NCBI GenBank assembly: GCA_965203125.1
Contig: CBDBBL010000018.1
Location: forward strand, 162,885 to 226,884
Direction: 5' to 3'
DNA length: 64,000 nt
DNA from: Gammaproteobacteria bacterium
Lineage (GTDB): Bacteria; Pseudomonadota; Gammaproteobacteria; CBDBBL01
A program made the position numbers and the translations under genes. Numbering within the stretch: the first letter of the stretch is position 1; every line of letters starts with the position of its first letter. Below are positions 20,275 through 28,892 of this stretch, piece by piece. The notes under the pieces are model-generated. The model did not search any database. It was not told the origin of the DNA and was given only the letters and a program-made list of their open reading frames with translations.

Positions 20275-21372
20275 TTACTCAACAGATAAAACAATCGGTT
20301 CTAAGGTTGCCGCGGTCTTATCAGTTGTAGCTGTATGCGTATTCCAGCCTAGGCGAGCTGGGTTGTCACTATTTAAATATAAATCATGTGTACTTGCGTA
20401 AGCTTTGATTAGCTCAATGTCAAAACTTAGTTGAGGGCTGATGTAGTGTTTGGTGAGCTCAACCAATGCAGTATAACCTCTCCCTGTGGGTAAGAATTGT
20501 AATAGCCAGTCATCATCCAGTGGCGAAATACGAATGCGGAAATGACTTTGACATTCGGTGTAACTTTCTCCAAGCATGGTATCGACGCCTAGCTGATTGA
20601 ATTGGGCGTTGATATCTGATGTGCTGGGCAGTTTGAGCTGTTGTGTTGTAGGTAAGTTGAGTTGCTTCTCTTGCAGTTCTAGAATTTGAATGCTGATATG
20701 GGAGTGATTGCTGAAGAAGTAATCAGTGAGTAAATCTTGTAACCCTTGTGCAGAATGGATTTCGCTGCTCAGTAAGAAATCGTAGTATAAAAAGGTGTCG
20801 GGGTGGACGATTTTGTCGGGTGATGGCGTTTGCTCATTTTGTGACGTTGTTGTGCCAATTAAACTCTGTAGGGCTACTGTGAACGCATCTGCTTCTAGGG
20901 TGTTAGATTGGCGCCTGGTGGTTTCATAATCGAGAAATACGCGATATTTGCGTTGCGCCAAATGGTAAAAAGAGATGGCGCGATGATTGAATAAATCATA
21001 GAAATTCCTGAGCGCAAACTCATTATAGTGTATGGCAAATAAGAGTTCTTCAGTAGCGTAAATGGGTAGGCTACCATTGACACCTGTTAGCCCCATAAAA
21101 CTTACTTGCATGACATCGGGTCGATTGGCCTGTCGTTTCCTGAGTTTGACAATATCTGTGGGAATACGGGTTAAATTGTTCTCACTGATGAAGTTAAGTT
21201 GTTCTTGTTCGGGTAAGAAATCTCGTCCATTCACTTTCTTTGCAAGCTCAGGGTGTTGTTGTGCTAGATAGAAATGTTGCCAGTCGATTAAACGGATTGC
21301 TTGCAGTAACGAAAATTGTGCAGGCGTTTCGTAGAGTCGGGCTAAAACATGATGATGAGGGAGTTGGGTCAT
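20275..21372 (-). CDS. tssG: Type VI secretion baseplate protein TssG-like
   Basis: 365 aa; N-terminal FSLLQAIRLID resembles the TssG (ImpH/VasB) FxFFQAVRLLE signature; 4-nt overlap with upstream tssF as usual for tssF-tssG. Confidence 0.7.
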   Translation of the reverse strand: MTQLPHHHVLARLYETPAQFSLLQAIRLIDWQHFYLAQQHPELAKKVNGRDFLPEQEQLNFISENNLTRIPTDIVKLRKRQANRPDVMQVSFMGLTGVNGSLPIYATEELLFAIHYNEFALRNFYDLFNHRAISFYHLAQRKYRVFLDYETTRRQSNTLEADAFTVALQSLIGTTTSQNEQTPSPDKIVHPDTFLYYDFLLSSEIHSAQGLQDLLTDYFFSNHSHISIQILELQEKQLNLPTTQQLKLPSTSDINAQFNQLGVDTMLGESYTECQSHFRIRISPLDDDWLLQFLPTGRGYTALVELTKHYISPQLSFDIELIKAYASTHDLYLNSDNPARLGWNTHTATTDKTAATLEPIVLSVE

Positions 21373-23213
21373 AATAATGCTTTACTGCCTAGCCTAGGTG
21401 CCCACTGATACAGTATTTTTCTCTTACCGCGATTTTTAACGGTTAACTGTGTAAAGGAGTTGAGAGTCACAGAAAGTGAGAAAAGTCGTTCTAATACGCT
21501 AGCAATGAGGTATGCAGATTGACCAACGAGTCGCTCTTCATCGAGCTCTAGTATGACTTCAACGCCTTGGCAGAAACTGGTAGTGCCAGCGGTGTTGTTT
21601 GGGTTTCTAGCAACTGTTTGGCGGCTGTCAATGCTGATGAGAGCGTGAGATAGACTTTCTAATAGCGTATTGCTTGGGTGACTGAAGAGGGAGAAAAATG
21701 CTTTTAGCTGTTCAATATCATGGTTGATCAAGAGGCTGTTAAAATTGATTCGTAGCAGTGCAATCGTTGACCATAGACTATTTTGATGGGCGTTGAGTCG
21801 CAAGGTTCTGGTTGGCTTGGTTAGGCACTGAATGTTCACTGACTGCTTGCCTTCACTGAGTTTAAGTCTTGGTTCTGAGCCACCAAAAGGAAGTTGATTG
21901 ACTAAGTCTCGATTGGTGCATAAAGCAGTGGCGGATAGTACGTGAGTTTCTTTATTAGCCAAGTCAAGTTGTGTGTCGACTAATGCAATAGAAACATTGG
22001 AACCGTGATCAATTTCTCCGTCAATGGGTTCTCCTTGTTGGCGATGTGTTTGGTAGAATCGAGTGTTGTCATTGGCTAGATGTTGGAATTTCTGTGCATA
22101 TAGTGGCAACGCTTCTTTGCTTTCGCCTTGTGAGTTCGTAATCTCGACTTGAGTGAGCTGGTGGATTTCTTTGTGAGTTGGATTGTCATGATCTGGGGTG
22201 AGTGGGTAGTCGGGTGTTTGATGTGTGATTGTGATGGGTGTTAAGCGATGCGAGAAAAGATTGATCATGGGGGCGCAGTTTAACGCAAAGTTTTCTTTGC
22301 TAAGATATTGCTCAAGTTCGCTATGTGCCTTTTGGAAATAAAAATGCAGGCAAAATTCATTACTGGAAGATGCTTGATTGAATATTTTGTCTGAGATACT
22401 TTCAGGTAGTGTGATATCTAAGAAGAGAAATTTTTCAGGAAATGTCAGTAGTTCGGTAAGTAGTGTGTGTGCTGCGGGGGTTCGTTTATCATGAGGCAGT
22501 AATAGCGTCTCGTGATCGAGACCGGCTGCTTGCAAATGAGATAGTGTCAGTGGTTCAACTTGTGTTTGTCGCTTATTGCTAATGGCAATCTGCACAGTAT
22601 CCGTTAGTAATGTTTCATAGAGCCGATAGACAAGACTTACTTGACCTTTTAGATGGATTCGTAAGCGAGTGAGCGGTAATGTTTCGAGTTTGATATTGTG
22701 TGAAGTGGCTTGGATTGTGAGGGATAATGTGCTGTTTGCTTGTGTGTAGTTGCCAATCATCGGGGTATGCTGATTGTGTGGAGAGAATAATGCTTGGGAA
22801 ATTGTGAAAGGAATGATGGGTGTATCGAACCCTAATTGAAATCGACAAGGACTGCCATTAACAGGGCGAGATTCAATTTCACTTCCTTTTTTAAGTTGCA
22901 GAACGGTCGTCACGCTAGGCGACGGGTTAAATTGAATGATTGCCATCGGTGGGATCGGGCTGTTAAATTGTGGTGCGAGTGTATTGAGCAAGCTTTCTGC
23001 GACTAGGGGGAATTGATCTTCTAGCACTTCGCGTGTTTTACTATTCATCAGTGCAACGGCTTCAATCAGGCGAGAAATATCTGGGTTCTCAACTTTGTCC
23101 GGAGTCATGTTGAGGTGCCCAGCAAGTTTTGGGTAGGCTTTGGCGAAGCTACTTGCTTGGTGGCGAATGTAGCTCAGTTCTTTGTTGAATAACTTTAATA
23201 ATTGATCGCTCAT
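21369..23213 (-). CDS. tssF: Type VI secretion baseplate protein TssF
   Basis: 614 aa; N-terminus LLKLFNKELSYIRHQASSFAKAYPKLAGHLNM...DISRLIEAVALM matches the TssF (ImpG/VasA) pattern LLxYYxxELxYLRxxGxEFAxxYPKIAxRL...DPxVERLLEGFAFL. Confidence 0.8.
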   Translation of the reverse strand: MSDQLLKLFNKELSYIRHQASSFAKAYPKLAGHLNMTPDKVENPDISRLIEAVALMNSKTREVLEDQFPLVAESLLNTLAPQFNSPIPPMAIIQFNPSPSVTTVLQLKKGSEIESRPVNGSPCRFQLGFDTPIIPFTISQALFSPHNQHTPMIGNYTQANSTLSLTIQATSHNIKLETLPLTRLRIHLKGQVSLVYRLYETLLTDTVQIAISNKRQTQVEPLTLSHLQAAGLDHETLLLPHDKRTPAAHTLLTELLTFPEKFLFLDITLPESISDKIFNQASSSNEFCLHFYFQKAHSELEQYLSKENFALNCAPMINLFSHRLTPITITHQTPDYPLTPDHDNPTHKEIHQLTQVEITNSQGESKEALPLYAQKFQHLANDNTRFYQTHRQQGEPIDGEIDHGSNVSIALVDTQLDLANKETHVLSATALCTNRDLVNQLPFGGSEPRLKLSEGKQSVNIQCLTKPTRTLRLNAHQNSLWSTIALLRINFNSLLINHDIEQLKAFFSLFSHPSNTLLESLSHALISIDSRQTVARNPNNTAGTTSFCQGVEVILELDEERLVGQSAYLIASVLERLFSLSVTLNSFTQLTVKNRGKRKILYQWAPRLGSKALL

Positions 23214-23311
23214 GGTTTGGTATTATATACCTAGCATACGTGAAGACACCAGCTCGATAATTCATTAATTATATGCTATATTTTGCAAGTTGTTTGATTG
23301 GAAGGTTTGTG

Positions 23312-27598: not shown

Positions 27599-27623
27599 CA
27601 GCCCTTTTTAGGGCTGTTTTTTT
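27599..27623. terminator. Rho-independent terminator (bidirectional) between convergent genes
   Basis: Hairpin CAGCCC-TTTTTA-GGGCTG followed by TTTTTTT, preceded by an A-run (GAAAA). Confidence 0.6.
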
Positions 27624-27650
27624 ATGCATAAAATCTGGGGAGTTATGGAC

Positions 27651-28892
27651 TCATATTTGTGTGTTTAGAGTTATGTGGGAATGAGTGCTGTTGTTTTCTG
27701 TGTGAGGGGTTAATGAAATTGTACATTGAACATGTGATGTGGAGTTTATATCTGGTTTAACTTCTATAGATATATGCGAAAAAGGATGTTGGCAAAAGCC
27801 CTGTGCTGATGTCGATTTTTGAGGAGAAATGTAGCGAGTTGCCCAATTGTTCAATTTACGTTGGAGTGCTTGTATGGACTTGACTTGTCCAATTTCATGC
27901 CTCCCTATCATTTTAACATAGTGTGCAAAATGTGCTACGCTGAGTATGTCCCCTAATGTGTATGGTGTATTTTCTGACCTAATAGCATGAAAGGTTGTTG
28001 CAGTGTTATCGAATAGGATGGTGCTACCGAGGGATGTTGGGCTAAAAAATCCTAGATGTTTAAGTATGTCTGTTTGATTTCTTGTGATAACGTTGCTTAA
28101 ATAAGTTTGTCTATTTATGTTGAAGTGTTCTTGTTGTAATGAGGTTAGCCATTGTTTTTTTATGTATGCTTTCAGGACGGTGGCTATAAAAACATAGGTC
28201 ACATGTATCTGGCTGGTTCGAGAGATTTCTAGTGTGCTTGATGCCATTAATCCCAAAAAATTTAATGAGCTATTTTCTCTAAGATTATTCCATTTTTGAT
28301 AAGGTTTAGATGTGAATAGCTCTTTTGTGTTTAAAGTGACTTTAAAATTTTTATAATCATCCACGCCAAAACACTGTGGCGTAGCTTGTAAAATAAATGG
28401 GCAAAAACTGGCGGAGCCAATTTCGGCTAAAACATTCAAAATAGCAATATCATTAGTTTTAAACACTGGGTTTGGTCCCCTAATATTCACTGAGTAGTCA
28501 ACCAGCATTATCCCAAAAGGTTTCCCTCCAGGGGAGCCAAATTCATCTTCGTAAACTTTCTCAAATAGAGTGGTTTGATCAAATTCAAGACTGCTCTGCG
28601 TATCTTTCGCAATTTCTTTCCAAGTAATAGGCAATGCTTTGATTAAAATATTATCAGCATCAGGATGGTTTGCTTCATGCGTTAATAATTGAAGTCCGAT
28701 CCATGCGGATTGTAAGCGTTGCAGGTCATTGTGTTGTGTGATTTGTTTAAGTTGTGATGCAATCAGTCGATCTAATTTAGCGATGCAGTAAACAAGCTGA
28801 TTTTTAAAGCGAGTGATTGTTGTTTTGTCGGGCTCTGTGCAAATTCCCAGTGCATTCAAGCTGGTTTGACTAATGCTGTTGTTTGTAATCAT
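27651..28892 (-). CDS. Divergent TssC (VipB) paralog
   Basis: 413 aa; blocks EFDQTTLFEKVYEDEFGSPGGKPFGIMLVDYS, GSASFCPFILQATPQCFGVDD and VAHFAHYVKMIGRHEIG align with the tssC product at 25458-26951, but overall much more diverged. Confidence 0.65.
   Translation of the reverse strand: MITNNSISQTSLNALGICTEPDKTTITRFKNQLVYCIAKLDRLIASQLKQITQHNDLQRLQSAWIGLQLLTHEANHPDADNILIKALPITWKEIAKDTQSSLEFDQTTLFEKVYEDEFGSPGGKPFGIMLVDYSVNIRGPNPVFKTNDIAILNVLAEIGSASFCPFILQATPQCFGVDDYKNFKVTLNTKELFTSKPYQKWNNLRENSSLNFLGLMASSTLEISRTSQIHVTYVFIATVLKAYIKKQWLTSLQQEHFNINRQTYLSNVITRNQTDILKHLGFFSPTSLGSTILFDNTATTFHAIRSENTPYTLGDILSVAHFAHYVKMIGRHEIGQVKSIQALQRKLNNWATRYISPQKSTSAQGFCQHPFSHISIEVKPDINSTSHVQCTISLTPHTENNSTHSHITLNTQI

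Follow-up and report, generated by a model that had tools for sequence, protein, structure and literature searches.

A rearranged type VI secretion gene set with two tssC genes, probably a maintained fragment of a split system, in a gammaproteobacterial genome

The 64-kb stretch of the gammaproteobacterial contig CBDBBL010000018.1 analysed here (hereafter the window, to which all coordinates refer unless stated otherwise) carries six genes for components of a type VI secretion system (T6SS), namely tssG, tssF, tssA, tssB, tssC and a second tssC-like gene, tssC2. Five of these open reading frames (ORFs) were called by Pfam and NCBIfam with E-values of 1e-57 to 1e-174, lay far above the curated NCBIfam cut-offs and covered their family profiles end to end, tssC2 being the only T6SS ORF without such coverage. 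On the minus strand lie tssG (20275–21372; baseplate wedge subunit of 365 aa; PF06996, 2e-67; TIGR03347, 197 bits against a cut-off of 143) and a full-length tssF (21369–23213; baseplate wedge subunit of 614 aa; PF05947, 7.6e-162, profile positions 1–608 of 608; TIGR03359, 519 bits), and the 4-nt overlap of the two genes at the tssF stop suggests that they are translationally coupled. The plus strand encodes tssA (23273–24637; short-form TssA with ImpA_N and middle domain; PF06812, 2e-27; TIGR03363, 210 bits against a cut-off of 161), for which the ATG at 23312 is the likely true start, giving a spacing from tssF of 98 bp instead of the 60 bp between the ORFs; tssB (24862–25443; small sheath subunit of 193 aa; PF05591, 3.3e-57; TIGR03358, 193 bits); and tssC (25458–26951; large sheath subunit of 497 aa, TssC41/ImpC ortholog; TIGR03355, 580 bits). 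The tssC2 gene (27651–28892; 413 aa; VipB and VipB_2 domains) is again on the minus strand. An initial annotation made from the sequence alone had named all six genes at these positions, including the TssC-like gene on the opposite strand, and the Pfam and NCBIfam searches confirmed every call; the significance of the tssF, tssG and tssA calls, on which that annotation had made its proposal depend, is secured by the bit scores above.

The two-subunit TssB/TssC sheath and the ImpA_N domain of TssA, both marks of T6SS subtype i, were thus found together. When compared with solved TssC/VipB sheath chains, the window TssC scored best with Pseudomonas aeruginosa H1 TssC (5n8n_B, 446 bits) and weakest with IglB (213 bits). 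The sheath is of the split TssB/TssC type, unlike the single-chain sheath of extracellular contractile injection systems and phage tails, and a PHROG search returned no phage-type signal for TssC2 or for the small gene that follows tssC. The C-terminus of TssA (24380–24637) forms a Pro/Gly/Met-rich tail of about 85 aa (…PPPPPGGGMPPPPPPPMDFGPPPPPMGGGFGGMGPPPMDFGPPPMGGGFGGMGPPPPPMF) containing a 63-bp tandem duplication (24494–24561 and 24557–24618); such a tail was seen in none of about 60 related TssA proteins from the fetched loci, which end near residue 370 or carry short acidic or Gly tails.

The initial annotation was right to propose a second, strongly diverged TssC, since tssC2 matched positions 3–179 of the 301-position VipB profile and, at its C-terminus, VipB_2, although with 204 bits it did not reach the TIGR03355 cut-off (271). 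In a neighbour-joining tree of 109 sheath proteins, the window TssC2 and its sister-strain copy fell on a long branch inside a clade of second copies (the C2 clade), beside members from Nitrincola and other Gammaproteobacteria, and the window TssC was nested among the first copies of double-tssC loci. Clade-specific profile hidden Markov models (HMMs) built without the window sequences gave the same division: TssC2 scored 276 bits with the C2-clade model, 171 with the first-copy model and 191 with the single-copy TssC model, the corresponding values for the window TssC being 443, 732 and 639 bits. The database relatives of TssC2 other than itself numbered three (P0003–P0005; 26–28% identity, 441–459 aa), and on the contigs of P0003 and P0004 the gene directly followed a normal tssC within a complete cluster; among annotated tblastn matches, the best ones fell on the second of two tssC genes (Pseudoalteromonas and Rhizobium replicons). 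The agreement of tree and clade HMMs indicates that the window paralog is an ortholog of the ancestral ImpD/TssC40-type second copy and not a new, local duplication.

Within this clade TssC2 is an extreme, trimmed member. It has three internal deletions relative to most C2 proteins (about 60 residues in total), only its residues 23–217 and 306–401 align with solved TssC structures, and it keeps 64% of the positions conserved in at least 85% of the C2 clade, a share matched by one other gammaproteobacterial metagenome-assembled genome (MAG; 62%), the remaining members keeping 79–99%. An AlphaFold2 (AF2) model of TssC2 computed from a 6-row alignment had a predicted local distance difference test (pLDDT) score of 42.8, too poor for a fold search.

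The relatives of the locus were collected by a GTDB scan with one genome per species and the window TssC as query, which returned 80 loci. The closest TssC proteins (52–56% identity) came from Pirellulaceae and other Planctomycetota, Acetobacteraceae and other Rhodospirillales, Psychromonas, Nitrincola and further Gammaproteobacteria; none in the scan was closer than 56%, and queries with TssA and TssF found no close relatives in JGI metagenomes. A recurring gene order, tssA-tssB-tssC-tssC2-tagJ-tssE-tssF-tssG-clpV, was seen in these loci, with tssK, tssL and tssM upstream or downstream of it and hcp/vgrG sometimes in a divergent operon; in several relatives hcp and vgrG were not within 10 kb. 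In 17 of the 17 loci that carry a second tssC of the C2 clade, the closest TssC relatives included, this gene lay directly after tssC and was followed by tssE-F-G, in most cases with tagJ between tssC2 and tssE. RefSeq annotation gives the same order, again with two consecutive tssC genes, for the complete clusters of the Pseudoalteromonas sp. THAF3 chromid (pTHAF3_a) and a Rhizobium tumorigenes plasmid.

The same order agrees with the published table for Atu4343–Atu4332 of Agrobacterium tumefaciens, whose imp genes run from Atu4343 (TssA) to Atu4336 (TssG) and include Atu4341/ImpC (TssC41) and Atu4340/ImpD (TssC40), and TssC41 and TssC40 are both needed for Hcp secretion and are non-redundant (PMC3702570). 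Two consecutive tssC genes have been described as a feature of group 5, with a meaning that the review calls unclear (PMC5813230). On gene content and phylogeny, the window locus would accordingly be placed in the T6SS-i double-tssC type, resembling the Agrobacterium imp cluster and group 5. The premise of the initial annotation that a T6SS normally has a single tssC, and hence that the locus represents an undescribed system, did not hold, as a second tssC is the hallmark of a known clade (PMC3702570, PMC5813230) and tssC2 is assigned to it by the tree, the clade HMMs and the RefSeq tssC pairs. With the group 5 T6SS of A. tumefaciens C58 (imp operon, Atu4343–Atu4330) the window shares tssA, tssB, tssC, a second tssC, tssF and tssG, and the two second TssC proteins belong to the same paralog clade, a link drawn from synteny and by way of Rhizobium and related loci. 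It differs in that tssC2 lies in the opposite orientation, has diverged much further and is shorter by about 60 residues, in that tssF and tssG are inverted relative to tssA, in that tagJ, tssE, fha, tssK/L/M, clpV, hcp and vgrG are missing from the locus, and in its gammaproteobacterial host. The clusters with the closest TssC and TssC2 (Pseudoalteromonas sp. THAF3, Nitrincola sp. MINF-07-Sa-05, a Psychromonas MAG and Pirellulaceae MAGs) are contiguous, collinear and mostly complete, whereas that of the window is split and rearranged. Roseobacter clusters also have more than one TssC-type gene, either as two tssC genes or as a fused long TssCL, the TssC-type genes being 34–37% identical to each other, although these belong to a different lineage (PMC9515649). 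An independent second tssC, located after clpV, was observed in Succinivibrionaceae (Succinimonas and Ruminobacter; loci L034, L037, L071, L073 and L077); as it groups apart from the ImpD/TssC40-type clade, tssC would have been duplicated more than once in T6SS evolution.

The collinear order tssA-B-C-C2-tagJ-tssE-F-G was not found in the window, where tssG and tssF read leftwards, tssA, tssB, tssC and a small orphan gene read rightwards, and tssC2 reads leftwards again. Relative to the ancestral order, tssF-tssG is inverted and adjoins tssA, tssC2 has been flipped so that it converges on tssC, and both tagJ and tssE have been lost; given these inversions and losses, at least three rearrangement events would be needed to derive the locus from a collinear ancestor. 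A palindromic MITE of 163 bp (24687–24849) with 80-nt inverted arms and exact 24-nt terminal inverted repeats, of which 0 are expected by chance, lies between tssA and tssB. It belongs to a family of palindromic elements some 160 bp long whose terminal inverted repeats are of the form TATACCC…, with further copies at 30029–30183, 34374–34536 and 47033–47195. A MITE-end look-alike noticed in the alignment at the tssF–tssA junction was considered as a breakpoint scar but lacks statistical support, its local score of 14 being within the range of shuffled sequences (mean 10.5, maximum 22).

The other core genes are absent from the window, as had been claimed from the sequence alone. No match was obtained in the 64 kb by tblastn with Hcp, VgrG, ClpV, TssE, TssJ, TssK, TssL, TssM, TagJ, Fha, PppA and PpkA queries from two annotated relatives. 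Custom profile HMMs were then built, with at most 55 sequences per family, from the homologs that 85 fetched loci provided, and run with filters off against all six-frame stop-to-stop ORFs of at least 30 aa in the window, and they detected only TssA, TssB, TssC, TssC2, TssF and TssG, the best E-values of the other families being 0.14–2. Pfam scans of about 40 further ORFs of the window revealed nothing T6SS-related. The TssE-TssF-TssG and TssK wedge is therefore incomplete within the 64 kb, TssF and TssG being present and TssE and TssK found neither by tblastn nor by the custom HMMs, with no tssE upstream of tssF; the TssL/TssM/TssJ membrane complex, the Hcp tube, the VgrG spike and the ClpV ATPase are likewise not found there.

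The orphan gene (27057–27566, plus strand; 169 aa, or 171 aa if read from 27051) is lineage-specific and closes the tssA-B-C transcription unit. That it is a true gene is probable because an AGGGGG Shine-Dalgarno site lies 8 nt 5' of its ATG at 27057, because its codon usage follows that of the host (log-odds of +0.15 bit per codon, the highest value among the six frames; bona fide genes also score positive, whereas two spurious ORFs do not), and because a terminator follows it. This predicted bidirectional intrinsic terminator (27595–27623), common to the convergent orphan and tssC2, consists of a hairpin and a U-run, with folding energies of -21.6 kcal/mol (z = -7.0) on the plus strand, where the U-run follows, and -16.3 kcal/mol (z = -5.7) on the minus strand; its position directly after the orphan indicates that this gene ends the tssA-(MITE)-tssB-tssC unit. 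A consensus scan for promoters and terminators showed no enrichment over shuffled sequences. The two spurious ORFs (19707–20267 on the plus and 24224–24892 on the minus strand) had negative coding scores and were not treated as genes.

As the initial annotation had remarked of this gene in the hcp position, Hcp features are lacking: T6SS_HCP (PF05638) was not matched at E≤10, a custom HMM of 37 Hcp sequences gave no match, and hhalign returned a probability of 0.1% for Hcp and below 1% for every other T6SS family. No Pfam, NCBIfam or PHROG family matched the ORF even at E≤10, its only relative among 5.8 billion protein clusters was the sister-strain copy, and no consistent equivalent ORF was present between tssC and tssC2 in the relatives. 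The single-sequence AF2 model consisted mostly of beta-strand with one helix, at a confidence (mean pLDDT of 33.6) too low for a fold search. A cadherin/LapA-like repeat protein was rejected as a candidate, as the whole-library E-values of 4e-7 to 2e-4 add up a large number of repeats, none of which scores above 14 bits, and a second TssB, hinted at by two PDB matches to HsiB1 at E~1, was ruled out by the TssB profile (-1.6 bits) and by hhalign. That the orphan encodes a cryptic tube protein is unlikely on sequence grounds because a protein as small as TssB still gives a match at 1e-57 in this lineage. The simplest guess is that the gene encodes an accessory protein or cargo specific to the lineage.

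Evidence on whether these genes are maintained came from a sister strain (L001; ENA ERZ25068744, contig_39) with 97.8% nucleotide identity, which overlaps the window from 26271 onward, and substitutions were counted by the Nei-Gojobori method. The C-terminal 225 codons of tssC had 30 synonymous and 1 nonsynonymous substitutions (dN/dS of 0.01; p = 8e-19 against neutrality), and tssC2 had 12.5 and 8.5, respectively (dN/dS of 0.18; p = 7e-5), so that tssC is under strong purifying selection and tssC2 is under purifying selection. The orphan, with 2 synonymous and 1 nonsynonymous changes, was uninformative. The tssC segment 26271–26681 (411 bp) had a dS of 0.38 with a dN/dS of 0.008. From 26688 to 29075, dS was about 0.05 for both tssC2 and the remainder of tssC and 0.017 for the orphan, and two intergenic regions had a value of 0. 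Such uneven divergence suggests that the segment is a recombined allele imported from a more distant lineage that still codes for nearly the same protein.

Given the strong purifying selection on tssC and tssC2, we consider it probable that the locus is a maintained fragment of a split T6SS of the double-tssC type. Maintained genes are presumably in use, and for parts of a T6SS use implies partner genes elsewhere in the genome; we infer both that such genes exist and that the machine fires. The locus would then represent the part of a double-tssC T6SS-i that encodes the sheath, TssA and the baseplate wedge (tssA, tssB, tssC, tssC2, tssF and tssG), in a deep-branching, mobile-element-rich gammaproteobacterium. 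At this site at least three rearrangements have reversed tssFG relative to tssA, reversed tssC2 and taken out tagJ and tssE, a MITE has landed between tssA and tssB, and a lineage-specific gene of 169 aa now closes the tssA-B-C operon. TssB and TssC would polymerise as a contractile sheath, controlled by TssA, on a baseplate containing TssF and TssG; TssC2 may have a non-redundant role as shown for TssC40 in Agrobacterium; and TssE, TssK, TssL/M, Hcp, VgrG and ClpV would be supplied by one or more other genomic loci.

A precedent for a split cluster, which supports this reading, is found in the gammaproteobacterial MAG L021, where a tssA-B-C-C2-E-F-G module stands alone at positions 8175–16007 of the L021 locus (CBDDKY010000003.1, a 1.5-Mb contig). 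The module is flanked by hipA, acrAB and hydrolase genes, and no other T6SS gene (tssK/L/M, clpV, hcp or vgrG) occurs within 10 kb on either side. Like the window locus, it lies apart from the membrane-complex, clpV, hcp and vgrG genes, and its proteins keep 62–88% of conserved positions; unlike the window locus, it has tssE (GPW_gp25, 4e-10), all of its genes are on one strand, and it has no orphan gene. The T6SS of Vibrio cholerae comprises a large cluster, holding tssE, tssK, tssL, tssM and clpV, plus auxiliary hcp-vgrG clusters. There too the genes for sheath and baseplate are separated from hcp and vgrG, although in the window many more core genes are displaced or lost.

Several points weigh against a maintained split system. 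The partner genes in the rest of the genome are assumed, not seen, and tssE, which is normally coupled to tssF, was not found here. The sister-strain tssC has a 1-bp deletion in an A4 run (window positions 26682–26685; A3 in the sister strain), which may be a real frameshift or a homopolymer error of long-read assembly. Furthermore, the shares of clade-conserved residues kept by the window TssB (76%), TssC (76%), TssF (69%) and TssC2 (64%) are the lowest or near-lowest, against medians of 89–97%, and TssA (84%) and TssG (74%) also keep fewer such residues than almost all relatives, which fits a fast-evolving, isolated lineage or relaxed constraint.

These points fall partly in with a second explanation, that of a decaying remnant, in which a once-complete double-tssC cluster was dismantled by IS/MITE rearrangement (IS, insertion sequence) and deletion and the surviving intact genes no longer build a machine. 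Such decay would account for the at least eight core or accessory genes not found in the 64 kb, the breaks in the ancestral order at no fewer than three points, the trimming of tssC2 with loss of 36% of its conserved positions, the divergence of the window proteins beyond almost all clade relatives, the MITE inside the operon and the possible frameshift in the sister-strain tssC. We nevertheless regard it as unlikely, though deserving of attention: the dN/dS of tssC stays near 0.01 over a dS of up to 0.38, purifying selection on tssC2 is clear, none of the six T6SS ORFs (about 7.4 kb of coding sequence) has a stop or frameshift in the window despite the dense IS elements, MITEs and group II introns around them, and the tssF-tssG coupling, the Shine-Dalgarno site and the terminator are still in place. 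If the genome proved to be without other core genes, the locus would be a case study of T6SS decay in a mobile-element-rich genome.

The idea of a remodelled, reduced contractile apparatus, with the orphan as an unrecognisable tube or cargo and a shortened, baseplate-proximal TssC2 that compensates, for example, for TssE, draws on the missing tssE and on the orphan itself, a plausible gene about the size of hcp that occupies the position behind tssC, is co-transcribed with the sheath genes and is modelled, at low confidence, as mostly beta-strand with one helix. The idea is nevertheless very improbable, as the orphan has no profile similarity to Hcp or other T6SS families, divergence alone is unlikely to hide an Hcp where the similar-sized TssB is readily detected, the relatives with TssC2 also keep TssE, so that TssC2 is no TssE substitute in the family, and no sheath of a T6SS or phage tail is known to us to assemble without tube, spike and membrane anchor. 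Hardly less improbable is a working, lineage-specific remodelling of a double-tssC T6SS in which the orphan is a new tube-like or sheath-associated component or cargo and TssC2 has changed its role in the absence of a canonical TssE; were it true, the locus would be a natural variant for working out the function of the second TssC. Of the two possibilities offered by the initial annotation, the fragment of a split T6SS holds up through the selection data, the intact ORFs and the L021 precedent, and the self-sufficient reduced apparatus found no support.

As a maintained fragment of a split T6SS, the locus is of modest value in three respects: it would be another sheath, TssA and wedge module kept under selection while apart from the rest of the machine, it supplies an extreme trimmed variant of TssC2, whose TssC40-type role is still unresolved in the literature (PMC5813230), and it contains an orphan gene co-transcribed with sheath genes. 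The paralogous sheath subunit is itself known, being the second TssC that is conserved throughout a T6SS clade of wide occurrence (in Rhizobiales, Acetobacteraceae, Planctomycetota and several Gammaproteobacteria); what is new is a rearranged, unusually divergent example of a double-tssC T6SS, which by itself carries limited weight.

The surroundings of the locus matched the initial description of mnmG on the left and a MITE/IS-rich region on the right, the family scans placing mnmG, hemA and prfA in the left flank and IS6/IS240 and IS256 fragments, MITEs and small orphan ORFs in the right flank. The Pfam scans of further ORFs also revealed housekeeping genes throughout the window (nhaA, tadA, xseA, guaB, guaA, truA, prfA, hemA, mnmG, aroK, pilQ, rplM, rpsI, glmU and anmK), in addition to mobile elements and an intimin-like giant adhesin, and Rfam matches were confined to tmRNA and a group II intron. 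The best match of MnmG (17984–19873) among the 5.8 billion protein clusters was only 68% identical, the named best matches being from Kaarinaea, Kangiella, Pleionea and Pseudoalteromonas, which points to a deep-branching gammaproteobacterial host without sequenced close relatives apart from the one sister-strain contig. The GC content and codon usage of the T6SS locus agree with those of the host.

A fragment of an IS6/IS240 transposase gene and a group II intron together form a 3.1-kb composite at 11937–15030, with a reverse transcriptase/maturase ORF at 12908–14434 and an Rfam intron domain at 14438–14524. The sister strain carries this composite at a different site, to the right of tssC2 (L001 positions 2805–5898, inserted at window positions 29068–29075 with an 8-bp overlap at the junction); because the two copies are 99.9% identical, the composite appears to have moved recently. 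The sequence on this side of tssC2 is variable and IS-rich, and it also contains several small paralogous ORFs (31119–31385, 31458–31754 and 31582–32478) with Sec-type signal peptides, a recurring (I/V)K(I/V)V(T/S)C motif and no Pfam match. Further to the right, at 49046–59127, an ORF with an inverse-autotransporter (intimin/invasin-type) beta-domain is followed by very long, highly repetitive immunoglobulin-like ORFs with apparent frame breaks between them, and this segment has a G+C content of 0.50–0.53, against 0.41 elsewhere in the window, and a strong AT skew.

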